Origin: an uncultured virus (IMG/VR IMGVR_UViG_3300020281_001373) | Lineage: Duplodnaviria; Heunggongvirae; Uroviricota; Caudoviricetes | Strand: one strand, 5' to 3' | Virus record (IMG/VR): IMGVR_UViG_3300020281_001373 | DNA length: 64,000 bases | In this document: one piece after another, positions 11,312-42,515 of the stretch | Layout of the letters: every line of letters begins with the position of its first letter | How positions within the stretch are numbered: the stretch's first letter is position 1 | Position numbers and translations under genes: made by a program | Notes under the pieces: generated by a model | Database searches by the model: none | The model's input: only the letters and a program-made list of their open reading frames with translations | What the model was told of the DNA's origin: nothing

Positions 11312-11480
11312 AATCGTACCAGCATTCACTGGTGGATATAATATTATTGCAATAAATAAAACTAGTTGGAAAGAAGTTGCTGGCCCTTATATGGCAGAAG
11401 ATGAAGCAAAGACAGACTTAGATCTTTTCAAAAGCGGTGATGTAGTAGATAATGAAGAAAATAGACAAAATAGATCTTAG
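11286..11480 (+). CDS. hypothetical protein
   Basis: ORF in operon. Confidence 0.45.
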   Translation: MSNSTIKYKIVPAFTGGYNIIAINKTSWKEVAGPYMAEDEAKTDLDLFKSGDVVDNEENRQNRS

Positions 11481-19666: not shown

Positions 19667-20176
19667 ATGGCTAAATCAGGATATAAGCAGCCCAAGACAC
19701 TGGACGAGGCCATCAAGTCCCTTACCCCGGTAGTCAAGAAGTTCGCCCGTCAGTACACCCGTAACCACTATCACCTCTATGAGGACCTCATGCAGGACGG
19801 TTTTATGGGTATCTGTGAGGCGTGGGATAAGTTTGACCATACCAAGGGTGCAAGCTTTACTACCTACGCCTGGTTCTATATACGTAAGAAGATGCAGACC
19901 ACTGTCGATCCCTTTTGGAAATGGGATAACAAGACCGTACCCGAAGAATGGGCACCCGATAATGGCTACGAGCACGACTTCGATGGCTTTGCGGCTATAC
20001 AGGCCTTTCAGAAGCTTAATGACTACGAGCAGGAACTCATAAGGCTACGTACCGAAGGATACACCTTCTCCGAGATAGCCAAGGAGATCAATAGGTCTAC
20101 TAAGTCACGTAAGTCACTTAACAAGATCAGGTCCGAGATACTCGAGATACAGGACAGGCTAGTCGCCGAGGAATAA
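19667..20176 (+). CDS. RNA polymerase sigma-70 family factor (regions 2 and 4)
   Basis: EDLMQDGFMGICEAWDKFD..KGASFTTYAWFYIR; EGYTFSEIAKE HTH. Confidence 0.85.
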   Translation: MAKSGYKQPKTLDEAIKSLTPVVKKFARQYTRNHYHLYEDLMQDGFMGICEAWDKFDHTKGASFTTYAWFYIRKKMQTTVDPFWKWDNKTVPEEWAPDNGYEHDFDGFAAIQAFQKLNDYEQELIRLRTEGYTFSEIAKEINRSTKSRKSLNKIRSEILEIQDRLVAEE

Positions 20177-21625: not shown

Positions 21626-22676
21626 CTATCCTCTTTATAAATTTATTTAGACCAGGATCGATATGTAGTAGCCGCTCCTGATTATGTTTACGGTCCTTTA
21701 TAGTATTATACCAAATTTCCTGCCATTGTTCATCACTCATGTGATATAATCTACTAATCTCCTCGTTCAGCATTCTTAATCTCTTGCCAGGGTCACGTTC
21801 GAGATCATACGAGTGGTCAATATACTTGTCAAAGAACTTCCAACCCTTACGTTTCAGATTGGTTATATGATGTTGTTGAGCCCAGTATAATGAGAGATTA
21901 CCTGATCTGAGAGCACGAAATGTCTTCTCACTTGCAAATGTAGAGAGTGGACCACCATTGATTCGTGTTTCTGATACGATCTCCAGTTGAAACTTTGCTC
22001 TTGCCTCATAGCTATCTACGAGTGCACCGTTCTGACCCTCGACAAGGTCCTGACCCTCACTGATGATTCTTTGTTTTACCTTACCCCAGTTATCAAAGTG
22101 TTTCTTTAGCGGTTCATTTATCTCAGGTCTCTCGAGTTCCGTCAGTATATGTGGACATCTGATCTCCATCTCCATATTACTATTTACTAGTCTCTTTAAG
22201 AGTTCGACACGATATGGATAGTGTCTTCTCATCCAGAAGAACATACGTTGTTTTCTATTTACAACCTGTTTGGATCTTTGATCCACGGGTACGGGTGGAT
22301 ATTTAGATATCTGTATGTCTACGAACTTCTTCCAGTATGGTACATATATCCAGTTCTTATCACATGACTGTGTAAGTGGTCCACTATTACAATGCCAGAT
22401 ATACATATTCTCATAGTTCTTAAACTCATGCTTGACATCAAACCACTCCTTAAACATATACTCCATTCCTACATTCAGTATGTATAGAGCCTTATTACCA
22501 TAGGAATCATACATTCTATTCATATAGTCACGTGCCTCGGTGTATCTTTCAAATCCACCAAGGTGTTCAAAGTATATGACCTGTATATTTTCTGCGAGTG
22601 TCTTTAGTTGTGGACTAAATGCTGAATCTGCTCTCAGAGCGGGTACTTCTGTATTGTTTATGTCTAGTGGAAACAT
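21609..22676 (-). CDS. putative glycosyltransferase (GT10/fucosyltransferase-like motif)
   Basis: EIVSET..FASEKTFRAL..IDHSYD. Confidence 0.55.
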   Translation of the reverse strand: MFPLDINNTEVPALRADSAFSPQLKTLAENIQVIYFEHLGGFERYTEARDYMNRMYDSYGNKALYILNVGMEYMFKEWFDVKHEFKNYENMYIWHCNSGPLTQSCDKNWIYVPYWKKFVDIQISKYPPVPVDQRSKQVVNRKQRMFFWMRRHYPYRVELLKRLVNSNMEMEIRCPHILTELERPEINEPLKKHFDNWGKVKQRIISEGQDLVEGQNGALVDSYEARAKFQLEIVSETRINGGPLSTFASEKTFRALRSGNLSLYWAQQHHITNLKRKGWKFFDKYIDHSYDLERDPGKRLRMLNEEISRLYHMSDEQWQEIWYNTIKDRKHNQERLLHIDPGLNKFIKRIDAETT

Positions 22677-23836
22677 TCTGTGGTACCATACTTTATAATC
22701 TTCTTGGTTCGAGGAACATCAATGTCATATTCCTTATCTCCCCAAGGATCGATGAGTATAGAACCATCAGCAACATTATCTATTATGAACTGTGTAGGTC
22801 CTCTACTACAGAGATACACAGCGGGTTCTTCTAGATATTTCTCATAATGAATCTCTTGTTTATTAAACATATCCATTTGTTCCTCTATATCTTCTAACCA
22901 TGCGGCTACGAGAAGAGATGGAGAACCATCGAGTAAATCAGATTCTTTCTTGAATCCATTCTCTAGGAATACAATAGGTAATTCAAATGTAGTCAGAAAG
23001 TCTGACATCTTCTGTGCCTGGAAGTCCCTCGCCTCCATCACGGCTGCAAATAAATCATACTTTAATTTAATATCAGCTGATAATTTTCTAAGGGCTATGT
23101 TGTCTCTAGGGTGACATGGACCACCATCTCCTAGACCTGGTCTCATGTACTTATCACTTGTAATTCTTTTATTAGATTTGGCTAGTGCATTAGCCACTTT
23201 CGAAGCATCCATGTGGCCAATCTCCATGGCCATATCCTGTATCATATTAACAAATGAGATCTTCATTGATATGAATGTATTGTAGAATACCTTTATGCAT
23301 TCGGCTTCTTCATATGTACCAGTTTCCCATCTTACTGGTGCAGTAATTATATTCTGATAGAATGCTATCAGTTCTGCTCTATCTCCTGGCTCACCACCAG
23401 CAATCATCATTTCAGGATTTAAGAAGTCTTCTTTTACGGTACCCATTGCGATAAGATATGGGTTATAAACTAATCTGTAGTTCTTTGGTATGTCCATCAA
23501 ATGTTTTCTAAATGTAGTTGGTAGTACAGTTGATATGACCACAACGAGAGCATCTGGTTCTGCATAGTCATTGAGATCATTTAACACATCTTTTAATGCT
23601 TCATAGTCAAAGTCTACGGGTTCTAGATTGTATGTAGGTTTATCACCACCATAATCATCTTGATGTGGTGTAGGTACCGCAATAAAAATAGTATCAGCAC
23701 CTTCACATACTTCTTTCATATCAGTATTCATCTTTGTATCATGAATATGTACATCATAGTACTCATTCATAACTTCAGCAACTGGACCGCCGAGTTTACC
23801 AGCTCCGATGAATGCTACTTTCTTACCAGCCTCCAT
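22664..23836 (-). CDS. UDP-glucose/GDP-mannose dehydrogenase
   Basis: GAGKLG, AVPTP, VIST, YNPYLIAMG, GDGGPCHPRD. Confidence 0.9.
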   Translation of the reverse strand: MEAGKKVAFIGAGKLGGPVAEVMNEYYDVHIHDTKMNTDMKEVCEGADTIFIAVPTPHQDDYGGDKPTYNLEPVDFDYEALKDVLNDLNDYAEPDALVVVISTVLPTTFRKHLMDIPKNYRLVYNPYLIAMGTVKEDFLNPEMMIAGGEPGDRAELIAFYQNIITAPVRWETGTYEEAECIKVFYNTFISMKISFVNMIQDMAMEIGHMDASKVANALAKSNKRITSDKYMRPGLGDGGPCHPRDNIALRKLSADIKLKYDLFAAVMEARDFQAQKMSDFLTTFELPIVFLENGFKKESDLLDGSPSLLVAAWLEDIEEQMDMFNKQEIHYEKYLEEPAVYLCSRGPTQFIIDNVADGSILIDPWGDKEYDIDVPRTKKIIKYGTTECFH

Positions 23837-24312: not shown

Positions 24313-24320
24313 TATTTATT
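24313..24320 (-). promoter_or_regulatory. late promoter variant AATAAATA
   Basis: immediately upstream of ATG 24308. Confidence 0.5.
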
Positions 24321-25044
24321 TTACTAAATTGAAATGTCGTTCATAGACATGTAGGTTTTGAACTTGCCATACTATCTGGCCAGGCTTACATTGTATATCT
24401 TGGCATAAACGCGTAAGTACTGTTTTTTGCCATGCAAAATCATTGCGATAGCCGTATATGACATCGTTAGAACGCATTTGAACTACACAGTCAAGTAAGT
24501 CATTACGTTTGTAATATGTGACAGCATTGGTACATATAAAATCTGACTTACCATTTTCATTGTATTCTTTCCATATAGATGGGCGAGTATAGATCATGGC
24601 TGCACGCCTTGAGTCTGGATTGTCAAGCAATTCTTCGACTACATGTTCGTATTGATTGTAGAATAAATCATCGTATATAAGCTTGCCATAATTAGAATTG
24701 ATATTACCCCAAGGATCAGCAGCTAGTAGCCATGCTTGAGGTGGTGAATTGACACCATCTTTATCTTTACCTTCAGGACCATATATATCATATATGCTGG
24801 TTGACATAGAATCATACCAATCAATTTCATAGTCAATGTATTCTTTATTAGGAATACCAAAGATCGCTGGTTCGTCAGCTATAAAAGAAGCACCAATTAA
24901 TTCTATAGTCTTAGAACCAGATCGATCCTTGGTAAACTTTTCTTGATTCAGTTCACTAATAAAGTGAGATCTGATATCAGAAACTTTTGGATGTAGTTTA
25001 GTCTTCGTTGAAGATTTTTTCGAGAATTCCAGTATTTGTCCCAT
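24316..25044 (-). CDS. gp42: dCMP hydroxymethylase (T4 gp42-like)
   Basis: NSNYG, NPDSRR..IYTRPS, DFICTN, MRSNDVIYGYRND, LHVYERHF match T4 gp42. Confidence 0.9.
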   Translation of the reverse strand: MGQILEFSKKSSTKTKLHPKVSDIRSHFISELNQEKFTKDRSGSKTIELIGASFIADEPAIFGIPNKEYIDYEIDWYDSMSTSIYDIYGPEGKDKDGVNSPPQAWLLAADPWGNINSNYGKLIYDDLFYNQYEHVVEELLDNPDSRRAAMIYTRPSIWKEYNENGKSDFICTNAVTYYKRNDLLDCVVQMRSNDVIYGYRNDFAWQKTVLTRLCQDIQCKPGQIVWQVQNLHVYERHFNLVK

Positions 25045-25423
25045 GGTTTGGTGCCTCCCAGTCTTTAGGTTTAGTCAAATCAGGTAGTCCGTATGGATTA
25101 GGTCTACCTTCCTTCAAGCCAATTGTTTTATTTAGATTAGCTTTTAATACTTCTTGCCACGCTTTATTACCATCAACCTTCATAAGATCAAGGGTACCAG
25201 CTGCGAATACAATGAGATCAATAAGACCATCAACTATTTCTTCAGGGTCTTGATTATCAAGTGCATTCTTAGTTTCATCAAGTTCTTCTTGACAACATTC
25301 AAGTCTGAATGCTAGGAACTTACCTAACATATCTTTATCCATTCTGTTTACTACTACAGGTACCATGTATTTCATATGCATACCTGCCATGTCTTTAAAT
25401 ATATCACTCATATCTTGCTCCAT
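24998..25423 (-). CDS. MazG-like NTP pyrophosphohydrolase (candidate dCTPase)
   Basis: QEELDE, EIVDGLIDL, ANLNK, DLTKPKDW. Confidence 0.8.
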   Translation of the reverse strand: MEQDMSDIFKDMAGMHMKYMVPVVVNRMDKDMLGKFLAFRLECCQEELDETKNALDNQDPEEIVDGLIDLIVFAAGTLDLMKVDGNKAWQEVLKANLNKTIGLKEGRPNPYGLPDLTKPKDWEAPNHGTNTGILEKIFNED

Positions 25424-25718
25424 TAAATATTGCTGAGAATATTAGAGGTTCTATATCTGTATTATACACTTTATGGAATTTATTTGCTGGTACTGGAATA
25501 GTGTCACCAGGTTTAACTGCAAATGTTTCATCTTCTATTTGCATAAGACCTGTACCTTTTGTAAATACATATACTTCCTCTTGTTGTGGGTCACTATGTG
25601 TATGACCATTGGTTTCTTTTCCTGGTTGTAGTACAGTAATTGAAGGAACTAATATATTTAGTTCATCATTATCTAGTACGGCATAACGCTCGTCTTTCTT
25701 AGCTATTTTCCAAGTCAT
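25404..25718 (-). CDS. cupin-domain protein
   Basis: GHTH..EEVYVF..G..VPANKFHKV. Confidence 0.85.
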   Translation of the reverse strand: MTWKIAKKDERYAVLDNDELNILVPSITVLQPGKETNGHTHSDPQQEEVYVFTKGTGLMQIEDETFAVKPGDTIPVPANKFHKVYNTDIEPLIFSAIFNGARYE

Positions 25719-28924: not shown

Positions 28925-28963
28925 ATTATTTGGTACTCCTTCTTGATATATTAATTATACTCT

Positions 28964-28992
28964 ATTCTATACAGTTTTTCAAGGATGTACAC
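28964..28992 (-). promoter_or_regulatory. early promoter copy 4
   Basis: GTGTAC-17 nt-TAGAAT. Confidence 0.85.
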
Positions 28993-29028: not shown

Positions 29029-29105
29029 TGGCCTCCACGGTAGGACTCGAACCTACAACCCTCGGCTTAGAAGGCCGATGCTCTATCCAGTTGAGCTACG
29101 TGGAG
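29029..29105 (-). tRNA. tRNA-Arg (anticodon UCU), CCA encoded
   Basis: acceptor CTCCACG/CGTGGAG, D-arm, anticodon loop CTTCTAA, GGTTCGAGTCC T-arm. Confidence 0.95.
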
Positions 29106-29564
29106 TTAGGCGAAATAGTGTAGGTTAATCCAGTCACAGGTCATGGCTGGTTTTTTCTGTCCTTCGATTTCAATGACAATATCAATAACTGTTCTAAATC
29201 TATTGCCAAGTTTCTTATATGATTTAAGAGTGAAGTGTGCTCTGATTCTTTCATCTGCTTTTACTGCCTGTCTAAACTTAAGGTTCTCTACTCCGACATT
29301 AGTGGCCATAACCTGACCAGCAAATGGTTTTATAATCTCATAACTAAATTTAGGTAGGAAAGATAGTATCAGAAAACCATGAGATATGATACCACCGAAT
29401 GGTGTAGCCTTAGCATAGTTCTCATCAGTATGAATTGGTTGGTCATCACCAACTAAGGCACCATATAGTTGTATTAACTCTTTGTCAATAGTTTCCCATG
29501 ACGATGTAAGTTTTACACCTATATGTTCTTTGTATTTTTTATCGGCAGCATCAATGGTATTCAC
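29106..29564 (-). CDS. MaoC-family dehydratase
   Basis: GDDQPIHTD..A..TPFGGIISHG. Confidence 0.9.
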   Translation of the reverse strand: MNTIDAADKKYKEHIGVKLTSSWETIDKELIQLYGALVGDDQPIHTDENYAKATPFGGIISHGFLILSFLPKFSYEIIKPFAGQVMATNVGVENLKFRQAVKADERIRAHFTLKSYKKLGNRFRTVIDIVIEIEGQKKPAMTCDWINLHYFA

Positions 29565-29809
29565 AGAAGTTTTTGCTCATCTAGTTGTTGCTTAAACTGA
29601 TCGTATCCACCGATATTTTTACCATCAATAAAGATTTGTGGAAATGTTCTAGCATTTGGTTGTAGCTTCAATAATTCTTCCATAGTAAAATCTTCATTCA
29701 GCATTAACTTCTCGTATGTATGTTTACTTTCCTGTACAAATTGTTGTGCTGCTCTTTCAGCCATATCACAGTACGTACATGGTTCTTTAGAATAAATTTT
29801 TATATGCAT
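29561..29809 (-). CDS. glutaredoxin
   Basis: CTYC, TFPQIF, IGGY. Confidence 0.9.
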   Translation of the reverse strand: MHIKIYSKEPCTYCDMAERAAQQFVQESKHTYEKLMLNEDFTMEELLKLQPNARTFPQIFIDGKNIGGYDQFKQQLDEQKLL

Positions 29810-29812
29810 AAC

Positions 29813-30250
29813 TTATCCTTGTAAATATGATAGCATTGTCTTAGCATCAGATACTTCGAATGGGTCACCTTCGAAATTATCAGCTTTACCTTCTTCAGCA
29901 AACATCTTTACAATTTGTCCATCTTGAAGAACTGCTGAATAACGCCATGATCTTGAGCCAAAACCTAGATTTCTTTTACTGACTAACATATTAAGTTTAT
30001 CTGTTAGATCACCATTACCATCTGCAATATACTTAACTTTAGAAACTCCTTGTTTCTCAAACCAAGCTTTCATTACAAATTCATCATTTACTGATATGCA
30101 ATAAACTTCATCAACACCACAGTTTTTAATCTCATCATATAGTTCTTCATAACCTGGTAAATGAGATGCAGAACATGTAGGTGTAAATGCACCTGGTAAT
30201 CCGAAGACTACCACTTTCTTATCTAAAAATAGGTCTTTATATTGTGACAT
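29813..30250 (-). CDS. peroxiredoxin (Prx5/redoxin type)
   Basis: PGAFTPTCS..HLPG, SVND.FVM.AW, RSWRY. Confidence 0.9.
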   Translation of the reverse strand: MSQYKDLFLDKKVVVFGLPGAFTPTCSASHLPGYEELYDEIKNCGVDEVYCISVNDEFVMKAWFEKQGVSKVKYIADGNGDLTDKLNMLVSKRNLGFGSRSWRYSAVLQDGQIVKMFAEEGKADNFEGDPFEVSDAKTMLSYLQG

Positions 30251-30291: not shown

Positions 30292-31617
30292 TTAAGCAAA
30301 AAATTCTTCTAGTCCAGATGATTTTTTTACTATAAGAGTGTTTTTAGTTTTATTAATTATATCTGTATACACATCAATGGCATCACAATGTGATTTCCAA
30401 AACTCAAATGCTTTGTGTCTTTCTTCATCACGTTTAACATTATCTGTTGCATACTCTGAAAGTATATTTGCAACTGTATTGTAATCTGTACCTTCTTTAT
30501 TTCTATGAGCCCATGTACCATAATCTCTTTGTTTAAAATCATCTGTCAGAAATATAGTACCACTATCTAAACAACTAATTACCGGATCACCTATCTTATT
30601 GTGAATTATATGAGCACCAAAATGTTCGTGAAATATAGGAACTGTACCAGCACCTAAACAATCTGAATGACAGTATTCTATATTAGCTCCGTACTGTTCA
30701 GGCTTGAGATGATATAGATCAGAACCAAACATAGACTTTGCCATTCTTAACATCATGTCGTGGTGTTGATAACCTGGATATAGATAGGCACCTTTCATTT
30801 CTTCTTCAGCACCATATTCAAAGTCACCAGTTTCACCATATTCTTTTTCAGGTCTAAACTTATTTACTACATTCCACCTTGTAGATGGATCGTTATCATC
30901 TTTATATAAGATACCTTTATATCCAATAGATGCTTCTAAACCTTCAAGTATTGTAATGAATCCTCTATGCATCATTTGTTCTTGATGAAAATCAATTAGT
31001 TGTTGTGGACCTTTCCAACCTGCAGATCTTCCAACCCATCTTATAATCTTTTCTTGTTCTTCAATTGGCTGCCAATACTTTTCTTTATTCTCATCAAAAT
31101 TATATCCTACACCCGCAGTTGTAATTGGAACTGTGATACCTTCTTTCTCACACCATTTAGCAAATGGGTTTGTAGTTGAATGAGTCATAATAACATCTAA
31201 ACATTGTAATACTTCTTTCAGTTTAGCATTACGATGAATTGATTGTATGTTATGGTCAACCTGAACAATGCTTTTATTAACATTAATTTTTTTTAATAAC
31301 TCTATGAAGTTGTCGACACATTGTTCAGGGTGACTTTTAGATGGAACAGAAAAGACAATCAAAGCTTCACACTTGTTAATCTCATCTATAACCTCAGTAC
31401 AAGTCATTAGATCAGGAAACTTCTTAGTAGTTTTACTAATCTCTGACCAATCTGCTCCTCTAAAATAGTTTACATCAAACTCCATGGAGTTTTGTCTTGG
31501 CCACACTTTATCCATAGTGGCATAGACTTTTACACCCATAAGTTTTTGGAATTCTACAACATTCTTCGTGACACCGCAACCTTCAACACCACGACCCATA
31601 AGTACTGCTACAGTCAT
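30292..31617 (-). CDS. agt: DNA alpha-glucosyltransferase homologue (T4 Agt-like)
   Basis: MGRGVEGCGVTK, SVP, DH..S..RN, RWVGR..WKG, EGLE, IEY.H..GTVPIF. Confidence 0.85.
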   Translation of the reverse strand: MTVAVLMGRGVEGCGVTKNVVEFQKLMGVKVYATMDKVWPRQNSMEFDVNYFRGADWSEISKTTKKFPDLMTCTEVIDEINKCEALIVFSVPSKSHPEQCVDNFIELLKKINVNKSIVQVDHNIQSIHRNAKLKEVLQCLDVIMTHSTTNPFAKWCEKEGITVPITTAGVGYNFDENKEKYWQPIEEQEKIIRWVGRSAGWKGPQQLIDFHQEQMMHRGFITILEGLEASIGYKGILYKDDNDPSTRWNVVNKFRPEKEYGETGDFEYGAEEEMKGAYLYPGYQHHDMMLRMAKSMFGSDLYHLKPEQYGANIEYCHSDCLGAGTVPIFHEHFGAHIIHNKIGDPVISCLDSGTIFLTDDFKQRDYGTWAHRNKEGTDYNTVANILSEYATDNVKRDEERHKAFEFWKSHCDAIDVYTDIINKTKNTLIVKKSSGLEEFFA

Positions 31618-32519
31618 TTGTTTTTACCTCTTTCTAGATTATACTGATCTACACACATATCTTCTAAACTCTTTGTTAGTGTAATCTTATCTGATAGTTT
31701 ATCTACAACAGAACATTCTGCATCACCATCACGTCTTTCAGTCTTTACAATATTTATGTTTTTACCTGTAGCTTTCTTAAAAGAATCAACAACTTCAAAC
31801 ACACTATAACCTGTGTTAGAACCAAGACATTCGTATGGTGTATTTGTTGGACCATCTTTAACAGCATTACATATTGCATTTGCTAAGTCTACAACATGTA
31901 CATAATCTCTAATACATGTACCATCGCGTGTATCATAATCTGTACCGTATATTTCTAAATAATCTCTTTTACCACAAGCAACTTCAGCTGCAACTCTAAT
32001 TAAATGTGTTGATGGACCTATTTGTTTGTGTACACCATCTGAACCAGATACATTGAAGAATCTAAAGATTGTATAACCACTTGCTTTTTCTTTGATTATA
32101 TCTTCAGCAGCAACTTTAGATTTAGCATAAGGTGATGCCATTTCCCATGCGGCTGATGTAGATGCAAATATAATATGTGCTTGAGGAAATACTTCACATA
32201 CTGCTAGTGTACCCATTACATTAGTCAGATAATAATCTGCAGGTCTTTTCATACTTTCTGGTACTACAGACAGACCACCTAAATGTACAACTGCATCATA
32301 ATCTGGCCATTGTTTTCCCATAGGAGTCTTTAATGATTGACGTCTATATACTTCTAAAACACTGAAACCATGAAAATCATGTAAGTATTGACTTACATCA
32401 TTCTTATCTTCGCCATGAACATCAACATCCAAGCCATCGATTTTTACACCTTGTTCATGTAGTATCTTACATACGTGTGAACCGATATAGCCATTACATC
32501 CTGTGACTAAGACGTGCAT
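31614..32519 (-). CDS. NAD-dependent NDP-sugar epimerase (GalE-like)
   Basis: TGCNGYIGSH, YAKSK, RFFNV, DGTCIRDYVHVVDLA. Confidence 0.9.
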   Translation of the reverse strand: MHVLVTGCNGYIGSHVCKILHEQGVKIDGLDVDVHGEDKNDVSQYLHDFHGFSVLEVYRRQSLKTPMGKQWPDYDAVVHLGGLSVVPESMKRPADYYLTNVMGTLAVCEVFPQAHIIFASTSAAWEMASPYAKSKVAAEDIIKEKASGYTIFRFFNVSGSDGVHKQIGPSTHLIRVAAEVACGKRDYLEIYGTDYDTRDGTCIRDYVHVVDLANAICNAVKDGPTNTPYECLGSNTGYSVFEVVDSFKKATGKNINIVKTERRDGDAECSVVDKLSDKITLTKSLEDMCVDQYNLERGKNK

Positions 32520-32914
32520 ACTCGTTTCCTTAAATCTGAAGATGAGAATCTATGTTCTCTTTTATTAAAGTACAATGCTATACCTCGTTTCTTGCATATA
32601 TCTTTTCCAGTAAAATCTTTTTCTTTATACTCTTCACCAAGAATTCTTACATCAATAGTATATAGTTCTAATATATCTTCTAAATCTTTTTCACTAGCAT
32701 AGGGAATAATCTCATCCACATACTTAACTGCTTTTAGTTGTGTATATCTTTCTACAATAGTTTGTATTGGTGAGTTCTTTTCTTTTCTATCTAGTGATGG
32801 ATCGACTTGTAAACCACAAATCAAATAGTCACATTGATCTTTAGCATCTCTTAACATTTGTACATGACCAGCATGTAATAAGTCAAATGTAGAACAGGTG
32901 AAGCCGACTTTCAT
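32507..32914 (-). CDS. glycerol-3-phosphate cytidylyltransferase-like (TagD family)
   Basis: FDLLHAGH, VDEIIPY, FSSSDLR. Confidence 0.85.
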   Translation of the reverse strand: MKVGFTCSTFDLLHAGHVQMLRDAKDQCDYLICGLQVDPSLDRKEKNSPIQTIVERYTQLKAVKYVDEIIPYASEKDLEDILELYTIDVRILGEEYKEKDFTGKDICKKRGIALYFNKREHRFSSSDLRKRVCTS

Positions 32915-32931
32915 AATCTGATTATACCCCG

Positions 32932-32961
32932 AATGGGAACATTATTTCTAATGCTCCCATT
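32932..32961 (-). terminator. 13-bp RNA stem-loop with GAAA tetraloop after the HTH gene (no clear U-tract)
   Basis: AATGGGAGCATTA-GAAA-TAATGTTCCCATT on minus strand. Confidence 0.5.
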
Positions 32962-32981
32962 AATAACAAAAGACTTAGTTA

Positions 32982-33245
32982 TTATACTAAGCCTTGCGCA
33001 ATTGCTTTGTAGCCTGCTGCTACTACGGCACGAGTTGGAGTACCCATACGGTATCTCAAAGCTCTTAGTCTGCTAGATTTAGCAGGTCTGTTTCCATAAA
33101 TAGCAAAACCTTTATTTCTAAGGTTAGCAACTACAGCAGTTGGGTTTGCCATGTTAAATCTGTCTCTCATTTGAGCAACAGTTAACTCAGCGCCATTTGA
33201 AAGAGCATCAATTACTTTCTGCTCTTGCGATTTTGTTTTAGCCAT
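32982..33245 (-). CDS. small winged-HTH DNA-binding protein
   Basis: LT..Q...RF..ANP.A.V..LR..GF.IY..YRMGTPTRAVVAAG; AAGGAG RBS. Confidence 0.7.
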   Translation of the reverse strand: MAKTKSQEQKVIDALSNGAELTVAQMRDRFNMANPTAVVANLRNKGFAIYGNRPAKSSRLRALRYRMGTPTRAVVAAGYKAIAQGLV

Positions 33246-35279: not shown

Positions 35280-35795
35280 ATGATTAAAGCACATTTTATA
35301 ACAGGTGTGCTGCGAACTTGGGTTGTTATGTTATTTGCGGTGACGTTGGCAGCCCTATCTACAACTAATCTCAACGCCAGTGAGCTTCACTTTGAGTTTG
35401 GCAACCCTGCATTCTCAAAACACGGCTACTCATCCCATGTCTTATCTATAGAACAACTCAATTATTCACGTCAAAGAGATGTAGAGAAAGATAAGAAGTC
35501 AGCCGATGCCGCTGCTCAGAGAGAAATAGACAATACAACAATTAATAAGTTCATTAAGAATGTTGAATCTCGTATTTATGCTAACTTATCTAAGCAATTG
35601 GTTGATAATATGTTTGGTACTAACTGCGTAAACACATCAGAAATAACTTGTGAAACTTCAGGTACAGCAGTAGTTGAAGGTGCTACAATTTACTGGGTAA
35701 GAGATGATACAACGGAGACTATTAGTTTAACAGTCACAGATGAGACCGGTAATGTCACAACGATCACCGTGCCCATTGGAGACTTTCTATTCTAA
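35280..35795 (+). CDS. csgF: curli assembly protein CsgF-like
   Basis: ASELHFEFGNPAF; C-terminal TDETGNVTTITVP. Confidence 0.8.
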   Translation: MIKAHFITGVLRTWVVMLFAVTLAALSTTNLNASELHFEFGNPAFSKHGYSSHVLSIEQLNYSRQRDVEKDKKSADAAAQREIDNTTINKFIKNVESRIYANLSKQLVDNMFGTNCVNTSEITCETSGTAVVEGATIYWVRDDTTETISLTVTDETGNVTTITVPIGDFLF

Positions 35796-35812
35796 TAGAA
35801 GAATGAACTTAT

Positions 35813-36625
35813 ATGAAGATACTTTTAGCTATATTACTGTCAGCAATAATTACGGGTTGTGTAAGCACACCTGACAGGATAGACTATTATCAAGATCTTC
35901 CGCCTCAACAACATGCTACACCAACATCAGAATTACTAGTTAAGCTTCCACCATTAGATGGTGATATTATAACCATTGCAGTATATTCATTTATGGATGA
36001 AACTGGTCAAAGAAAACCTAGTGAAAAGTTCTCACAGCTGTCAACAGCCATTTCACAAGGTGTAGATGTATGGGTAATACAAGCTTTAAAAGAAGCGGGT
36101 AATGGTACATGGTTTAAAGTTGTAGAAAGAATGGGATTGGATAATGTAATAAAAGAAAGACAACTTATAAGAAGTACAAGAGAAGCTTATGATGGAGAAC
36201 AAAAGAATTCACTTAAACCTTTAATATTTGCAGGCTTAATATTAGAAGGTGGAGTTGTTGCCTATGATACTAACGTAGAAACAGGCGGTAACGGTGCAAG
36301 ATACTTTGGCATTGGTGTATCCGAAGAATATCGGGTAGATCAAGTCACTGTCGCTATGAGAGTAGTTGCTGTTCAGACTGGTGAAGTTTTACTTACCGTT
36401 TCAGGTACTAAAACAATTGCTAGTCATAGATCAGGAACTGATGTTTTTAGATTCTTAGATATGGGAACTAAGGCTTTAGAAATAGAAAGCGGAGTCGCTA
36501 TGAATGAGCCAGTAAATTACGCGATACGATCCGCAATTGAGTATTGCGTAATTGAAGTAATTAAACAAGGTGCAGATCAAGGTCTGTGGAAAATAAAGGA
36601 GGAAAACAATGAAACAATTCATTAA
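35813..36625 (+). CDS. csgG: curli secretion channel CsgG lipoprotein
   Basis: lipobox ITGC; AVYSFMDETGQRKP, STAISQG, WFKVVER, KERQLIR. Confidence 0.92.
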   Translation: MKILLAILLSAIITGCVSTPDRIDYYQDLPPQQHATPTSELLVKLPPLDGDIITIAVYSFMDETGQRKPSEKFSQLSTAISQGVDVWVIQALKEAGNGTWFKVVERMGLDNVIKERQLIRSTREAYDGEQKNSLKPLIFAGLILEGGVVAYDTNVETGGNGARYFGIGVSEEYRVDQVTVAMRVVAVQTGEVLLTVSGTKTIASHRSGTDVFRFLDMGTKALEIESGVAMNEPVNYAIRSAIEYCVIEVIKQGADQGLWKIKEENNETIH

Positions 36626-37295
36626 CCTTATATTATTATCAGTCTTGTTTACAGGTACATTATGGGCGAATGATATATATGTCACTCAAAGTGGTAATAC
36701 ACTTGACTTAGATATCACACAGGATGGACAAAACAATACTGTTGGTAATTCTACCACATCATCATCGGTTGTAGGTGCTACATCTACTATTGATATTGAT
36801 CAGGTAGGAAACTCTAACGTCCTTACATTTGATGTTAACGGTGATACATACACCGGAACATTCAATGTCACAGGTGATAGCAACAATATTGACTTTAACT
36901 GTGATAGCACAGGGAACAATTCCTCATGTGCAACAGTTACGTCCAGTATAACATGGGTAGGTTCCAGTAACGATTTAGACATCGATATTGGAGAGACTGC
37001 TGATGCCGCAAACGGTGCAGTGACTATAACAGGAGCCAGTGGTTCTGATTCAAACGTTATAGCTGCGACTGTTGATGGTACATCTGCAATCTTAACACTA
37101 ACTGTAAACGGTGATACAAATAACTGGTTGATAGATATTGATGGTAATGGAGATATTAATGGCCATACATTAATCCATTCTCATACAGGCGGTATTGCCG
37201 ATGTAGATATAGTTCAAAGTGGTGTTTATGACAACATAATAAACTTAACTACAAGCGGTAATAATGCTGATATCGATATAAGTCAAACAGACTAA
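36609..37295 (+). CDS. secreted curlin-like repeat protein
   Basis: signal peptide; QxGxxN repeats (TQSGN, TQDGQNN, DQVGNSN). Confidence 0.7.
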   Translation: MKQFINLILLSVLFTGTLWANDIYVTQSGNTLDLDITQDGQNNTVGNSTTSSSVVGATSTIDIDQVGNSNVLTFDVNGDTYTGTFNVTGDSNNIDFNCDSTGNNSSCATVTSSITWVGSSNDLDIDIGETADAANGAVTITGASGSDSNVIAATVDGTSAILTLTVNGDTNNWLIDIDGNGDINGHTLIHSHTGGIADVDIVQSGVYDNIINLTTSGNNADIDISQTD

Positions 37296-38422
37296 TGAGA
37301 ACTCTATACAGAGTCATTGCCTTTTTGATAGGCGCTTGTGCTTTACTCTTATATGGTAAGGAGATTAATGCACAGACTATAGGAGATGTAATTCTTCAAG
37401 AAGGCAATGCTGTTATAGAACAAAGTGGTGAAGAGAATATATCTGTCGAAGGTTTAGATGTATTTTCCTATGATGTCGTTAAGACTGGAAATGGTAAGAC
37501 TGCTATATCCTTTATTGACGACACTCGCGTGGATGTCACTGAACATTCAAAACTTATAATAGATGAGTTTGTATATGACCCTGCAAATAACAAAGGGTCA
37601 CTCTCAATAAAAGCGACTTTAGGTACCGTACGTTATGCTTCTGGTCAAATAGCAAAGAAGTATGCACAGAACGTAAATATCGAAACACCAACTGCCACCA
37701 TCGGTGTAAGAGGTACTGACTTTAGTATGACTGTAGATGAGATTGGTGGTTCAACAATAATCCTTTTGCCGTCATGCGATACACGGGGTTATTGTTATGT
37801 AGGTGAAATTGAAGTAGAGACAGATGCAGGTTTTGTTATTATGAATCAAGCATTTCAGGCAACTGTAGTCACGACTGGTGAATCAAAACCAATGAAGCCA
37901 GTAATTTTAGATTTAGATGAAAACATGATTGGTAATTTATTAATAATACAAAAGCCTCAAGAGATTGTAGCTGAGCAACAAAGAGCTGAATATAACGAAG
38001 TTGCTAATGCATTAGATATAGACTTTTTAGAATTTAATGATTTAGAAGTAGATGAATTAGAAATAGATAACGATACATGGTCAACAGGTTTAGATATAGA
38101 TTTTTTAGAACAGAATTTTTTAGTAGATGTATTAGCACAAATAAACAAAGAACTTGCTAAGGCAATGAGAAGTGAGTTTGTAAAACAAGAAGAAGCTGCA
38201 ATTGATGGTGTACAATTAGGTAAGGACCCAGAAACAGGTATCATAATATTAGATGAAGACCCTGAATGGGTATATGCAAGAGAAGGTGCAGCAACATATT
38301 TTGAATTAAGATTAGATAAAGAATATGGTTATGTAATTAGTTTTATACAAGAAGATTTTGAAGTATATGACTATGAATTAGGTGGACAAGGAAATGAAAT
38401 CAGGATTTACCAAAGTAATTAG
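37295..38422 (+). CDS. FecR-domain protein
   Basis: signal peptide; TPTATIGVRGTDF; acidic C-terminal half. Confidence 0.85.
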   Translation: MRTLYRVIAFLIGACALLLYGKEINAQTIGDVILQEGNAVIEQSGEENISVEGLDVFSYDVVKTGNGKTAISFIDDTRVDVTEHSKLIIDEFVYDPANNKGSLSIKATLGTVRYASGQIAKKYAQNVNIETPTATIGVRGTDFSMTVDEIGGSTIILLPSCDTRGYCYVGEIEVETDAGFVIMNQAFQATVVTTGESKPMKPVILDLDENMIGNLLIIQKPQEIVAEQQRAEYNEVANALDIDFLEFNDLEVDELEIDNDTWSTGLDIDFLEQNFLVDVLAQINKELAKAMRSEFVKQEEAAIDGVQLGKDPETGIIILDEDPEWVYAREGAATYFELRLDKEYGYVISFIQEDFEVYDYELGGQGNEIRIYQSN

Positions 38423-39122
38423 TTTTTTAATAATTATTATTATAGCCACTATATGGTCAGATCAGGCTAAGGGCAGTGACATATATGTATCACAATCAGG
38501 AGATAACTTCACTTTAAATATAGATCAAGATGGAGATAATCATCTTATTCGTGGTTATCATAATCAAACCGCTAGTATACAAGGTAGCAATAATGATCTC
38601 AGAATTAGACAACGTTCATCTATTACAACTGGTACATTTTCCACAGCACATGTAGATATTAATGGTAGCAATAACGACATATACATGGGTATGGGTTGGG
38701 GTACTACAAACTTTAATAACTTTAATGCTACTGATCATCAAGAGGCTGGTAATCATAATCAAAAATTATATCTACAAGGTTCTAATAATGATATTTACAT
38801 GGGTCAAAGAAATGGTTCACCAAGTCAAGCATACAGTCCACATAATATAGATTTAAAAATATACAGTGATAATAATAATGTTGGAATATTTCAAGGTCAT
38901 GATGGTTCAAAAACAATGAACTTAACTATCAATAATGATAATAATAATGTGACTGCTTATCAATTAGGTTATAACTCCACACACAGTGCTACAATAACAT
39001 TAGATGGAAACTATGGTACTAACTTATATTTGAATCAAAACAATGGATATTCCAGTCATTCATATACACTTAATCAAACATGTATGAATTCAAATGGATG
39101 TAGTGTGACTGTAAATGACTAA
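38394..39122 (+). CDS. second curlin-like repeat protein
   Basis: DIYVSQSGDN, GSNND repeats, terminal CxxxxGC. Confidence 0.7.
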   Translation: MKSGFTKVISFLIIIIIATIWSDQAKGSDIYVSQSGDNFTLNIDQDGDNHLIRGYHNQTASIQGSNNDLRIRQRSSITTGTFSTAHVDINGSNNDIYMGMGWGTTNFNNFNATDHQEAGNHNQKLYLQGSNNDIYMGQRNGSPSQAYSPHNIDLKIYSDNNNVGIFQGHDGSKTMNLTINNDNNNVTAYQLGYNSTHSATITLDGNYGTNLYLNQNNGYSSHSYTLNQTCMNSNGCSVTVND

Positions 39123-40980
39123 ATTTTTTACACATTGGACATTTGCATTTGTCACACTCTTTATTCTTACATATATAGGATTACAAGACCCTACAATAAA
39201 AGAAACACTACGTTTAAAATCGTTTGACTTTCTTATTCAATCACAAGAAAAATCTTTATCTGATGACATTATAATTGTAGAGATTGATGAAAAGGCAATT
39301 GAAAAACATGGTCAATATCCATTTAACAGAAGTGTATATGCAGATCTTATTGTAAAGTTAAGAGATGCTGAAGCTGGTATCATTTTATTTCCAATATTAT
39401 TTTCTGAAGAAGATAGAATGGGTGGTGATGAATACTTTGGTGATGCATTACAATATGGTACTGTAATTGCACAAGTAGGTACAACACAAATAAACAAGAA
39501 TGCGGTTCCAAGAGGTGTTGCAAAGATAGGCGATCCATTACCATTTTTATTTGAATGGCCTGGAATGTTAGGACCTATACCTGAATTAAAATCAAATGGT
39601 GTTGGTGTTATTAATACTGCACCTGAAATTGATGGTGTTGTAAGAAGAGTACCATTACTTATGAGAATAGGTGAAGATGTATACCCATCAATGGCAATTG
39701 AAATGATAAGAGTTGCAACTGGCGATCCATCATATCAAGTAAAAGCTGATGAGAATGGTATAGTAGCTATGCGTGTACCTGGATACGCGACCATACCCAC
39801 AGACATGCACGCACGGGTATGGTTAAATTATAATAAGACCTTTGACTCTATCTCATTAGTAGATGATGATATGCATTTTGAGCTTGTTAAAGGTAAAACT
39901 GTAATAGTTTCATTAACAGCTGAAGGTTTAAACAATGTTATTGCTACACCCATAGGTGAACAATATGCTCATACAATAATAGCAAATAACATACAAACAA
40001 TTATTGATGGTGATAATATTACAAGAAATGATTTACATTTTCTAGAACTTATAGTTGCATTCTTGATATCTGCTTGCTTCATAGCACTAGCAAGAATTGC
40101 ACCTTATTGGATTATTGGCATGAGTCTTATAGGTGCATATATAGTGAGTATATATGGCACATACTATATGTTTCATCAGACAAGAGAAATGTATGATGTA
40201 AGTTGGTTCCTTATCATGATTACATTTGTAAGTTTACATTCTATCTTCAATAGATTCATATTAGAGTTTAATTTAAAACAACAGATAAGAAAACAATTTG
40301 AAAAGTATTTAGACCCAAGACAAGTTGCCATATTACAAAAGAATCCAGATAAGATTAAACTTGGTGGTGAAAGAAAAGAAATGAGTTTCTTATTTATGGA
40401 TATTGTAGGTTTTACACCAATATCAGAACATTACAAAAATAAGAATGACCCTGAAGGATTAGTAAAAGTTATTAATGATTATCTACATCGAATGAGTAAG
40501 ATAGTTCTTGATAATGGTGGTACAATAGATAAGTATATGGGTGATTGTATTATGGCTTTTTGGAATGCACCACTTGATTGTGACAACCATGCTGAGATGG
40601 CGGTGAAGTCTGCTATTGAATGTGCTGAAGAAACAGAAAAGATTAAAGAAGAGTTTAAAGCAAAAGGATTACCAGAAATTAATATTGGTAGTGGTGTAAA
40701 TACAGGAACTTGTATTGTAGGTAATATGGGTAGTGAAATGAGATTAGATTATAGTGTTATTGGAGATGCTGTAAACTTAGCAGCAAGATTAGAAGCACAA
40801 ACTAGAAACTATAAAGATAAAGATGGTAATGTCACACCATTATTATATTCACAACACACTAAGGATTTACTTAGTAATATAGACTCTATCGAAGTGGATA
40901 AGATTAAAGTTAAAGGTAAAGAAGAGTTAATTACAATCTATTCGCCAGTATCTACCATCTCAGCTTCTAAACCAGGATAA
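39115..40980 (+). CDS. CHASE2-domain class III adenylate cyclase
   Basis: IDE..G.YPF.R, DGVVRR, TM helices, DIVGFT, DKYMGD, GDAVNLAARLE. Confidence 0.92.
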   Translation: MTKFFTHWTFAFVTLFILTYIGLQDPTIKETLRLKSFDFLIQSQEKSLSDDIIIVEIDEKAIEKHGQYPFNRSVYADLIVKLRDAEAGIILFPILFSEEDRMGGDEYFGDALQYGTVIAQVGTTQINKNAVPRGVAKIGDPLPFLFEWPGMLGPIPELKSNGVGVINTAPEIDGVVRRVPLLMRIGEDVYPSMAIEMIRVATGDPSYQVKADENGIVAMRVPGYATIPTDMHARVWLNYNKTFDSISLVDDDMHFELVKGKTVIVSLTAEGLNNVIATPIGEQYAHTIIANNIQTIIDGDNITRNDLHFLELIVAFLISACFIALARIAPYWIIGMSLIGAYIVSIYGTYYMFHQTREMYDVSWFLIMITFVSLHSIFNRFILEFNLKQQIRKQFEKYLDPRQVAILQKNPDKIKLGGERKEMSFLFMDIVGFTPISEHYKNKNDPEGLVKVINDYLHRMSKIVLDNGGTIDKYMGDCIMAFWNAPLDCDNHAEMAVKSAIECAEETEKIKEEFKAKGLPEINIGSGVNTGTCIVGNMGSEMRLDYSVIGDAVNLAARLEAQTRNYKDKDGNVTPLLYSQHTKDLLSNIDSIEVDKIKVKGKEELITIYSPVSTISASKPG

Positions 40981-42515
40981 TAGTTCTCACCATATATTTG
41001 TCTTTGTGTGTAGTTATATACAAATGCCGCAGTCTTTCTTTCCATCTTTTCCATGTTAAGATTCTTCTGATAAGTATGTTGTAAGAAATAGTGGTCTTCT
41101 TCAATTGCAGATAATTCCATAAGTCTAAATCCAGCAACTTTTACAAAATCATTTGAAGCATAATTTAATTCAACACATTTTCTATTTGCTGTTGATGAGT
41201 TAAAGTTCTTGTGTTTCCAATATAGACCATTACCTGGAATTGGAAACTTATATCCCCATTTCTGTGCATCCTTATCAAACTTACTCATTTGCAATTCACC
41301 TGGTTTTTCATGTTGATTTATATAGAGTGGTTGAAATATCCAGTATCCTGGTTGATGTTTTACCATCCAATCCCATGTTTCTTGTAGACTCTCATTTGTT
41401 TCTCCAGGTAAACCAACAATAAGTCCTAATTCATATGTGACCTTATCTCCCCAATATTCCATGAGTTCTTCTAAGAATTCTTTACCTTGTCTACCATTCC
41501 AACCTTTACCAATTGCTTTTGAAGCTTCAGGATGAAAAGATTCTATGCCAAAGAATGGTGATACTAATCCTATCTCTCTTAATAAATCTTTCTGTGCTTG
41601 TCTTGCCCAGATCAAATCCATTCTATGGTAGCCTACATACTTTAAATCGAATGGCAAGTCACTTGATATTTTTGCAAGTTCTTCCATCTTTTCCATATCT
41701 TCATTGAATGTATCATCAGTAAATACATATTTTGTGGTACCAAATTCCTCATAGTTTGCAATAAACTCGTCTTTGATTCTAGAATAATCTCTTATATAAG
41801 TACCTTTCTTTTTTCCAATCAATGGATATGAACAGAATGCACATTCAAATTGGCAACCTCTACCCATTTCCATAAGCAGTGCTTCATTAGGACTAATAGA
41901 CATGCTTTGTCCTAAGTATGCACGAGTTGCCTTTTGAATATCAAATTCATTTCTTTTTCCTGTAAAACCTGACATCTCATCAAGATATTTTAGGAAACTA
42001 TCTTCAGCGAAACCATGAAACTTTCTCCATTCGAAATGCATATTACCGTAATGTGTTTGTGAACCACCCATTACCCAATCTAATTGTGGATGTCTTTTTT
42101 CTAAAACATCTCTTGCTTTCATTACCCAAAACGGTTCTTCAGTTTTATTTGGAGCAGCCATCATGTTAGTAAAGTTCTGATCGAATAGCTTTCTCTTTTT
42201 TACAGGGTCATCTGAATGACCAATCTGATCACCTACTGATGTAGTATATGTGTTTGTTTTTTCTGAACCTTTTGCTTTCTTCATCCTTACACTTGGATGC
42301 CAGAAAGATGTGCTTACACCGATACCAATTGTTTCTGGACCGATATATTTTTCATTAATTTCTAAAAATGCTTTTTCATGTATAAGATGACAAAAGTCTA
42401 TTACCTTAACATCATAACCATGTTGAATACACCATGACGCAAGTTGATGTGGACCTATAGGCCTAATTGGAGCGAAGTCCTCTGCCAAGCAGTTCCAAAT
42501 TACAAAATGCGCCAT
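40938..42515 (-). CDS. B12-binding-domain radical SAM enzyme
   Basis: PIGPHQLASW..GYDVKVIDF; GRGCQFECAFC; DDTFN; GIES; IVGLPGET. Confidence 0.85.
   Translation of the reverse strand: MAHFVIWNCLAEDFAPIRPIGPHQLASWCIQHGYDVKVIDFCHLIHEKAFLEINEKYIGPETIGIGVSTSFWHPSVRMKKAKGSEKTNTYTTSVGDQIGHSDDPVKKRKLFDQNFTNMMAAPNKTEEPFWVMKARDVLEKRHPQLDWVMGGSQTHYGNMHFEWRKFHGFAEDSFLKYLDEMSGFTGKRNEFDIQKATRAYLGQSMSISPNEALLMEMGRGCQFECAFCSYPLIGKKKGTYIRDYSRIKDEFIANYEEFGTTKYVFTDDTFNEDMEKMEELAKISSDLPFDLKYVGYHRMDLIWARQAQKDLLREIGLVSPFFGIESFHPEASKAIGKGWNGRQGKEFLEELMEYWGDKVTYELGLIVGLPGETNESLQETWDWMVKHQPGYWIFQPLYINQHEKPGELQMSKFDKDAQKWGYKFPIPGNGLYWKHKNFNSSTANRKCVELNYASNDFVKVAGFRLMELSAIEEDHYFLQHTYQKNLNMEKMERKTAAFVYNYTQRQIYGENYYPGLEAEMVDTGE

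Follow-up and report, generated by a model that had tools for sequence, protein, structure and literature searches.

What sugar would a marine T4-like phage put on its DNA when, beside a homologue of the T4 alpha-glucosyltransferase Agt, it carries its own nucleotide-sugar enzymes? The question is raised by three overlapping genes on the minus strand of a 64,000-nucleotide stretch from an uncultured virus of the Caudoviricetes (IMG/VR record IMGVR_UViG_3300020281_001373), which was analyzed as a whole and is referred to here as the window. In order of transcription, the genes code for a small nucleotidyltransferase, a GalE-like epimerase and an Agt-like glycosyltransferase. T4 Agt transfers glucose from host uridine diphosphate (UDP)-glucose to 5-hydroxymethylcytosine (hmC) and needs no dedicated donor pathway. 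A preliminary description of the locus had proposed that this phage makes a different donor and, with it, an undescribed glycosyl-hmC. Our comparison points to a large marine branch of the Agt family, in which a nucleotide-sugar tailoring enzyme nearly always appears to accompany Agt; in the window phage, a non-glucose product is likely rather than established, with galactose or GalNAc as the best guess.

The three open reading frames (ORFs) have exactly the coordinates first given for them, and the TagD-like, GalE-like and agt-like family assignments stand (Table 1). The nucleotidyltransferase and epimerase ORFs overlap by 13 nt (32507-32519), and those of the epimerase and the Agt-like protein by 4 nt (31614-31617), so that start and stop codons overlap. 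In the six closest viral contigs (87 to 100% Agt identity), the order helix-turn-helix (HTH) gene, CTP-like nucleotidyltransferase, epimerase, Agt-like gene, peroxiredoxin, glutaredoxin and MaoC is kept as far as each contig extends and, because this order recurs, the trio is evidently no chance juxtaposition. The Agt-like protein passed the gathering threshold of Pfam PF11440 AGT (103.8 bits, cut-off 25), matched phrog_2888 alpha-glucosyltransferase over residues 1-426 (E = 6.8e-59) and aligned with the solved T4 AGT (1xv5/1y6f/1y8z) over residues 1-414 against 2-389 (E of ca. 9e-34). T4 AGT and 33 marine homologues share 49 invariant alignment columns. By this homology, the enzyme would transfer a sugar onto hmC in DNA. 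The marine branch comprises 259 homologues at E ≤ 0.001, and Agt proteins of cultured phages are only ca. 28 to 29% identical to that of the window. No cultured phage with a marine-clade Agt was found among the 655 to 658 phage records matched, all of them below 60% identity and the best at 29 to 31%.

The association with a sugar enzyme extends well beyond the window. From the 268 relatives confirmed in a profile scan, we retained 80 loci, with flanks of at most 4 kb; their ORFs were classified with hidden Markov models built from seed ORFs in those loci. A short-chain dehydrogenase/reductase (SDR) directly adjoins the Agt-like gene in 73 of the 80, across three Agt clades with 43 to 100% identity, either as a GalE-like enzyme upstream (14 loci) or as a different SDR type downstream (59 loci), and two further loci have the SDR one gene or 500 nt away. 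Within the same flanks, a gp42 homologue was present in 47 loci and a CTP-like gene in 24. This conserved adjacency gives good support to a donor-tailoring partner dedicated to Agt, in agreement with the functional tie between the Agt homologue and a nucleotide-sugar enzyme that had been put forward in the preliminary description.

A quick maximum-likelihood tree of 39 nonredundant Agt sequences resolved three marine clades. The upstream GalE-like arrangement characterizes the entire window clade (five rows, support 99) and is seen at two places within a further clade (L028/L036 and L061). This amounts to three label changes on the tree, and well-supported branches force at least two of these. 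At five Agt columns, the upstream-GalE-type sequences differ from the others, of which at most 2 of 25 share the residue. F89, Q125 and D243 of the window Agt are present in all eight upstream-type sequences, the remaining two columns hold in seven of the eight, and F89 and Q125 are each located beside an invariant motif. These columns, although correlative, would fit a donor pocket that tracks the partner enzyme. We also observed that most relatives outside the window clade (L012-L087) have a C5-cytosine DNA methyltransferase-like gene (PF00145) after the Agt-SDR pair (for example, L033:6018-7211, L076:7006-8196 and L085:6159-7376), and that the same phages also have a gp42-type hydroxymethylase.

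The partner enzyme in the window is an extended SDR (PF01370, E = 4.4e-31), for which all 32 PDB sequences matching at E ≤ 1e-10 were UDP-glucose/galactose 4-epimerases. Its best-scoring solved relative is Escherichia coli GalE (1udc, 5gy7; E of ca. 1e-36), although the phage enzyme has 301 instead of 338 aa. The NAD-binding GxxGxxG (VTGCNGYIGSH), the catalytic Ser and the YxxxK are kept, a GTDYDTRDGTCIRDYVHVVDLA block matches E. coli GalE, and a long GNDYPTEDGTGVRDYIHV block and an RRxGD block are common to both proteins. Also kept are the residues aligned with E. coli GalE R231, R292 and D295, which we take to have a UDP-binding role. Where E. coli GalE has Tyr299, the position changed in the 1lrk Y299C entry, the window epimerase has Ser; a small residue there presumably goes with acceptance of N-acetylated UDP-hexoses, which is a lead rather than a result. 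NCBIfam gave no equivalog for any of the trio proteins, nor for the SDRs of the other Agt clades, and the sugar is not nameable from sequence. The segment between the catalytic Ser and the YxxxK, described earlier as shortened on the basis of the peptide ASTSAAWEMASPYAKSK, which is indeed present in the translation, is ca. 15 residues shorter than in E. coli GalE (Ser124-Tyr149), and the canonical spacing is absent. The same deletion, between Ser120 and Tyr131, was found in seven of seven phage GalE-like proteins aligned (41 to 79% identical to that of the window) and, because S120, Y131 and K135 are invariant in all seven, it is evidently a conserved clade trait and not decay. The short segment is therefore real and conserved, while its tie to altered specificity, also suggested in the preliminary description, is pure conjecture.

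An hmC acceptor is plausible, as had been assumed from the start, since a gp42-type dCMP hydroxymethylase was found elsewhere in the window, which makes glycosylated hmC a sensible product. The protein keeps the catalytic Cys (DFICTN) and has Asp in the RND motif where thymidylate synthases have Asn. It also keeps the Asp in MRSND (the E. coli D169 position) and hence does not have the D169N signature of 5-hydroxy-dCMP synthases. The three residues are invariant in eight of eight gp42-type sequences (the window and seven relatives). The gene overlaps that of a MazG-like NTP pyrophosphohydrolase, a candidate dCTPase by inference; this role found no backing among PDB matches, those to DR2231 being weak (E = 0.04 at best).

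The reading that we prefer, at roughly even chances, takes the trio as the glycosylation arm of a T4-style cytosine hypermodification in which the epimerase sets the donor and a C4-epimer sugar ends up on hmC. The gp42-type enzyme would make 5-hydroxymethyl-dCMP, as its homology and conserved active-site residues suggest, the MazG-like enzyme may act as dCTPase, and the hydroxymethylated base would be incorporated during replication, by analogy with T4. The Agt-family GT-B enzyme would then put a sugar on hmC in DNA. Its donor would be set by the translationally coupled GalE-like epimerase, most likely through conversion of host UDP-Glc or UDP-GlcNAc to the C4 epimer, and the outcome might be galactosyl- or GalNAc-hmC instead of glucosyl-hmC. 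For the nucleotidyltransferase, activation of a phosphorylated sugar or alcohol is the probable function, either in the same glycan step or in a parallel one.

The nucleotidyltransferase is a member of PF01467 CTP_transf_like (57.8 bits, cut-off 21), with an HxGH motif (LLHAGH) that aligns to that of TagD and ECT. It shares fold family, HxGH and a similar length with TagD glycerol-3-phosphate cytidylyltransferase, ECT and RfaE/HldE domain II. Its best NCBIfam match was rfaE_dom_II TIGR02199 (75.5 bits, cut-off 181.5), with 69.2 bits for TagD TIGR01518 (cut-off 165.4), and its best PDB matches were human ECT 3elb and TagD 2b7l/1coz, HldC 5x9q and CCT being weaker. Neither a TagD nor an RfaE-domain-II identity could be assigned, with PDB favoring ECT/TagD and NCBIfam marginally RfaE; because neither equivalog cut-off was reached, the substrate class is not assignable. 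Homologues number more than 8,000, and the top 120 database clusters, 84 to 100% identical, come from marine metagenomes. Among cultured phages, copies were found in six Vibrio phages (82% identity), Acinetobacter phage Ab1-TPeters (63%) and Synechococcus phage S-B43 (52%). Taken with the top 120 clusters, the identity in the otherwise unrelated Vibrio phages makes this gene unusually conserved for a phage. With T4 as a positive control, PF11440 was not matched in Vibrio phage Va1, Ab1-TPeters or S-B43, and no gp42-type match was found in Va1 or S-B43. Va1 is also without a PF01370 gene and, of the 32 ORFs around its nucleotidyltransferase, none except that gene matches any window ORF.

The gene is nonetheless found repeatedly in company with nucleotide-sugar enzymes. 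Three Agt subclades (L028/L029, L036/L037 and L010) have the order CTP-SDR-AGT or SDR-CTP-AGT, and in four loci (L008, L033, L038 and L046) a phosphomannomutase-type gene comes before the CTP-like gene and a nucleotide-sugar dehydrogenase after it. In S-B43, three annotated SDR sugar enzymes come after the nucleotidyltransferase. In the complete relative G003, the CTP-like gene is located ca. 11 kb away from Agt. The window itself has a second, divergent CTP_transf_like gene, 33% identical to the trio nucleotidyltransferase over 72 residues.

Regarding transcription, the trio had been placed behind one promoter-like motif. We found a sigma-70-like match at that place, with a −10 hexamer that ends just 6 nt ahead of the ATG; however, such matches are not above chance in the region (25, versus 21.9 ± 4.4 in shuffles), and we could not confirm that this part of the preliminary description is meaningful. 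The next strong promoter-like site is at 28982..28954. The intergenic region before the trio is strongly conserved, GGGGTATAAT being invariant in four aligned sequences, and it contains two tandem stem-loops that none of 200 shuffles matched in folding. The first, which overlaps the stop codon of the HTH gene, precedes a U-rich run and forms a terminator-like site (32995..32970). The second is a 13-bp stem with the −35-like TAGAAA in its loop, and in an 87% identical relative (L007) its pairing is kept through a compensatory C-G to G-C exchange. The T4 late promoter TATAAATA is absent near the trio. Over the whole window, this motif is depleted (3 occurrences, versus 11.6 ± 3.5 in shuffles, with at least 3 in all 100 shuffles). 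Contigs from RNA libraries, with at least 90% likeness, cover parts of all three trio genes in four of four runs from three studies. Two of them, from separate runs of a single study, extend over the epimerase/Agt junction by 31 nt or more to either side, and one connects the HTH gene, from its 3′ end, with the first trio gene. Parts of the stretch are without such cover in some runs, from which no conclusion was drawn. Downstream, the gaps from the Agt-like gene through tRNA-Arg(tct) are 41, 3, −4 and 0 nt, and the peroxiredoxin to tRNA-Arg genes (29029..30250) probably share the transcription unit of the trio while being outside the sugar pathway.

The main alternatives differ in the part that they give to the two sugar genes. 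In a linear pathway, the nucleotidyltransferase would make an ADP- or CDP-hexose or -heptose from a sugar-1-phosphate, the SDR would epimerize it, and the Agt-like enzyme would transfer it to hmC. A cytidylyltransferase-containing cluster reconstituted by Pyle et al. (bioRxiv 10.1101/2023.12.21.572611) did give heptosyl-hmC. The overlap of the three genes in the window clade, the recurring gene orders and the S-B43 neighborhood described above speak in the same direction, as does the fact that the best NCBIfam match of the nucleotidyltransferase is a heptose-1-phosphate adenylyltransferase domain. We nevertheless consider a linear pathway unlikely, since the epimerase is far nearer to GalE (212 bits against TIGR01179, its best NCBIfam match) than to ADP-heptose 6-epimerase (51.5 bits) and keeps the residues of presumed UDP binding, the PDB matches of the nucleotidyltransferase favor phospho-alcohol enzymes (ECT, TagD) over HldC, no phosphomannomutase gene was found in the records G001 or G002, and the CTP-like gene is distant from Agt in G003. 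Alternatively, the product could be ordinary glucosyl-hmC, made by a UDP-glucose-dependent Agt-like enzyme, with the epimerase converting UDP-galactose to UDP-glucose and so topping up the pool in a UDP-glucose-poor host. The GalE reaction is freely reversible, so the module could feed UDP-glucose and glucose could be the product; every characterized PF11440 member named in the searches is a glucosyltransferase, and the 49 columns invariant with T4 AGT point the same way. Of the non-glucose hypermodification proposed earlier, the donor-tailoring Agt partner survives, whereas the step to a sugar other than glucose is overstated. However, a partner SDR that varies by Agt clade (GalE-like, or other SDRs plus a dehydrogenase) is hard to explain if only glucose is needed, Agt residues co-vary with the partner type and, in the work of Pyle et al., the subclass II clusters tested needed their epimerase in E. 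coli, which has UDP-glucose. We give glucosyl-hmC a rather small chance. A third possibility, that the epimerase and nucleotidyltransferase serve as auxiliary metabolic genes in host surface glycan formation or elsewhere in metabolism and stand beside Agt only as early genes, appears very improbable. The nucleotidyltransferase is widespread and very conserved in marine phages and occurs in phages without Agt or gp42, and marine T4-like phages carry many sugar genes elsewhere, such as the epimerase of Mosig; yet the SDR stays adjacent over divergent clades despite rearrangement of all else, the coding regions overlap, and the co-variation of Agt residues with the partner would be left unexplained.

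A donor set by the epimerase, which we prefer, has its own difficulties. The donor, the sugar and even DNA as the acceptor rest on homology. The 80 loci are not independent, as they include many near-duplicates, and 7 of the 14 upstream loci fall within the clade of the window, one of these being the window's own record. Five of the 80 have no SDR (L011, L058, L060, L079 and L083); upstream sequence is missing for two of these (L011 and L083), and in the other three there is space on either side. The tree comes from a quick search only. The 212 bits of the epimerase lie under the equivalog cut-off of 262.3, and its 15-residue deletion may affect its activity. Because its copies occur in cultured phages without PF11440, the nucleotidyltransferase is evidently not dedicated to Agt phages, so the place that the preliminary description had given the TagD-like gene in the Agt donor pathway is uncertain. 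Finally, RNA libraries can contain DNA, and a contig over two genes does not prove a single transcript.

The hydroxymethylase gene is part of a second operon that may contribute to the modification, with the order cupin, MazG-like, gp42-like, 111-aa ORF, dehydrogenase-like, 355-aa protein and 415-aa protein. The cupin matched PF01050 (mannose-6-phosphate isomerase C-terminal domain) below the cut-off (E = 1.7e-4), and the relative L010 encodes a cupin with PF01050 at E = 5.3e-24. The 390-aa dehydrogenase-like protein scored 135.6 bits against TIGR03026, below the cut-off of 189.8. Nucleotide-sugar dehydrogenase-like proteins are in general short here (254 to 390 aa; window 9091-9855 and 22664-23836, L033:904-1812, L076:6195-7013 and L063:5114-6028), with only the N-terminal and central Pfam domains matched, none C-terminal, and all under the TIGR03026 cut-off. 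The 355-aa protein had no Pfam or PDB sequence match; its AlphaFold model, built from a five-sequence alignment, has a predicted local distance difference test score of 70.0 and a predicted template modeling score of 0.65. The 12 Foldseek matches of this model at E ≤ 0.001 (listed ranks 1-12) were GT-B-fold glycosyltransferases or UDP-sugar 2-epimerases, and VIA realignment gave Z values of 9 to 10 to GT-B chains, including the phage HY126 glycosyltransferase 9iqz, T4 AGT 1y6g and T4 BGT 1j39. We assign the predicted GT-B fold with moderate confidence, and a glycosyltransferase role as a candidate only. A 74% identical copy is found in the 152-kb relative G002. For the 415-aa protein, there were 286 homologues at E ≤ 0.001 and no useful PDB sequence match. 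One of 12 scanned homologues (P0274) matched PF01973 (E = 4.2e-13), a faint link to MptE-like proteins in a family that presumably also holds Maf-type glycosyltransferases. Atlas gave weak leads for the 355-aa and 415-aa proteins (Glyco_transf_10, 0.80 to 0.81; MptE-like, 0.86, the latter score belonging to the 415-aa protein).

Table 1. Features of the window around the Agt-like gene, the gp42 operon and related sugar genes
Feature	Position	Strand	Remarks
Nucleotidyltransferase, cytidylyltransferase fold, TagD/ECT/RfaE-domain-II-like	32507-32914	minus	135 aa; PF01467
GalE-like NAD-dependent nucleotide-sugar 4-epimerase (predicted)	31614-32519	minus	301 aa; PF01370
Agt-like DNA glycosyltransferase, GT-B fold	30292-31617	minus	441 aa; PF11440
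Sigma-70-like promoter match TAGAAA-18-TATAAT	32950..32921	minus	Directly before first trio gene; significance doubtful
Two tandem stem-loops between HTH gene and trio	32932..32999	minus	Minimum free energy −29.9 kcal/mol; z −5.9
Peroxiredoxin	29813-30250	minus	Co-directional, downstream of Agt-like gene
Glutaredoxin	29561-29809	minus	Co-directional, downstream of Agt-like gene
MaoC-like dehydratase	29106-29564	minus	Co-directional, downstream of Agt-like gene
tRNA-Arg(tct)	29029-29105	minus	Co-directional, downstream of Agt-like gene
Small cupin	25404-25718	minus	104 aa; PF07883, E = 5.4e-12; heads gp42 operon
MazG-like NTP pyrophosphohydrolase, candidate dCTPase	24998-25423	minus	phrog_671, E = 1.2e-21; PF01503; overlaps gp42-like gene
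gp42-type dCMP hydroxymethylase	24316-25044	minus	242 aa; PDB 1b49 (T4 dCMP hydroxymethylase), E = 1.7e-61
Nucleotide-sugar 6-dehydrogenase-like protein	22664-23836	minus	390 aa; PF00984 and PF03721; in gp42 operon
355-aa protein, predicted GT-B fold, candidate second glycosyltransferase	21609-22676	minus	AlphaFold2 model
415-aa protein	20378-21625	minus	Ends gp42 operon; N-terminal ca. 200 residues in family of ca. 195-aa viral proteins
Second, divergent CTP_transf_like gene	8687-9130	plus	Overlaps truncated dehydrogenase-like gene
Second, truncated nucleotide-sugar dehydrogenase-like gene	9091-9855	plus	Overlaps CTP_transf_like gene

The window as a whole belongs to a T4-like phage, with homologues of gp32, gp59, gp33, DexA, gp2, tail tube and baseplate proteins and a GC content of ca. 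34%. Its gp32 is 45 to 51% identical to that of Synechococcus T4-like phages, and by this marker the lineage is nearer to Kyanoviridae. A 108.9-kb IMG/VR record is 99.95% identical over its bases 1-43266 to bases 20735-64000 of the window. Fourteen DNA runs contained half or more of the sampled words; they come from marine, seawater and coral-reef metagenomes, plus one labeled a synthetic metagenome. Four of the 14 may be the source sample, and the runs with any part of the stretch come from 11 studies. The epimerase of Pelagibacter phage Mosig sits in a different gene context and was rejected as a counterpart of the trio epimerase. Several other genes stand apart from the sugar enzymes. A TonB-dependent receptor (Plug and beta-barrel, 17173-18837), a sigma factor of the extracytoplasmic function (ECF) type (19667-20176) and a FecR-like protein (37295-38422) together resemble cell-surface iron signaling. 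The 18-to-22-kb stretch has a GC content of 0.43 to 0.45, versus ca. 0.34 elsewhere. Adjoining homologues of CsgF (PF10614, E = 4.9e-12) and CsgG (PF03783, E = 2.9e-55), both curli secretion components, are located at 35280-36625 and also belong to PHROG families of unknown function. A 621-aa protein (39115-40980) combines a CHASE2 sensor with an adenylate/guanylate cyclase catalytic domain (phrog_35576, E = 4e-272). Auxiliary genes unusual in T4-like phages include an Fe/Mn superoxide dismutase, two radical SAM proteins, a NifU-like protein and a fatty-acid desaturase (1797-2309, 11452-12963, 40938-42515, 46900-47334 and 50077-50877).

Phages classically use glycosylated hmC to protect their DNA from restriction enzymes and CRISPR, and it is itself targeted by type IV restriction systems and DNA glycosylases. 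To our knowledge, the hmC sugar diversity of T4-like phages has so far been known from enterobacterial and Acinetobacter phages (glucose, gentiobiose and arabose-type adducts). A broader proposal, which we advance tentatively and think somewhat more apt to fail than to hold, is that marine T4-like phages include a large and abundant group, uncultured throughout, that bears lineage-specific hmC glycans. The sugar would be set by a swapped-in SDR partner, giving a C4-epimer hexose or HexNAc in the window clade and a uronic-acid-derived sugar where a dehydrogenase is present, Agt residues F89, Q125 and D243 would track the partner, and in the window phage the second GT-B protein, together with the dehydrogenase-like enzyme of the gp42 operon, would build the adduct into more than a monosaccharide. 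If the sugars do differ as predicted, marine viromes would contain DNA refractory to the usual enzymatic library preparation and to restriction analysis, new DNA-glycosylating enzymes could readily be drawn from the Agt/SDR pairs, and partner swapping would provide a simple evolutionary route to glycan diversity.

Compared with known systems, the locus is closest in its parts to the T4 glucosyl-hmC system (gp42, the gp56 dCTPase and a-gt), with which it shares the gp42 active-site Cys and Asp, end-to-end Agt homology and a T4-like backbone. However, the Agt-like protein is only ca. 28% identical to T4 a-gt, has 441 instead of ca. 400 aa and is coupled to a phage-encoded epimerase and nucleotidyltransferase, while T4 draws on host UDP-glucose. 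In five related records, we found no match to PF20691 (TAGT) and none to PF09198 (beta-GT), although the latter also went unmatched in every control genome, which makes its absence uninformative. In the gene arrangement, the window resembles the subclass II clusters of Pyle et al. (bioRxiv 10.1101/2023.12.21.572611), in which a DNA glycosyltransferase is adjacent to a sugar epimerase. In that preprint, metagenomic phage glycosyltransferases needed the partner epimerase for hexose (Hex), N-acetylhexosamine (HexNAc) or hexuronic acid (HexA) on 5hmC. The concept of such a glycosyl-hmC can therefore no longer be called undescribed, as the preliminary description had it, since phage glycosyltransferase-epimerase pairs acting on 5hmC have already been reconstituted there. 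The preprint describes 5hmC as formed post-replicatively, via a C5-methyltransferase and a TET-like (5mYOX/TET) dioxygenase, whereas the window uses the gp42-type nucleotide route. PF00145 was absent from G001 and G002, and no search was aimed at TET-like genes. The window glycosyltransferase belongs to the T4 Agt family, and "AGT" has 0 occurrences in the preprint text examined.

A dedicated donor pathway in T4-like phages has also been described by Lee et al. (NAR 2026, PMC13326640), where phage-encoded NDP-arabinose pathways feed DNA arabinosyltransferases acting on 5-hydroxycytosine (RB69, DLP3 and HY126). As proposed for the window, an own NDP-sugar pathway, there made up of isomerase, kinase/nucleotidyltransferase and phosphatase, lies beside DNA glycosyltransferases and a thymidylate-synthase homologue. 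The differences are that their ThyA homologues, which make 5-hydroxy-dCMP, carry the D169N signature, whereas the window enzyme keeps Asp like T4 gp42, and that their glycosyltransferases are not PF11440. Neither an arabinose-5-phosphate isomerase nor a MurU-type nucleotidyltransferase was found among the window ORFs scanned with Pfam. Among the papers listed by full-text searches, none was seen to describe this marine Agt clade or an Agt-GalE pairing, although the supplementary contigs of Pyle et al. could include some. Set against these systems, the locus involves no new principle; what is new is that the hmC-forming nucleotide route of T4 and a glycosyltransferase of the T4 Agt family are combined with a GalE-like partner.

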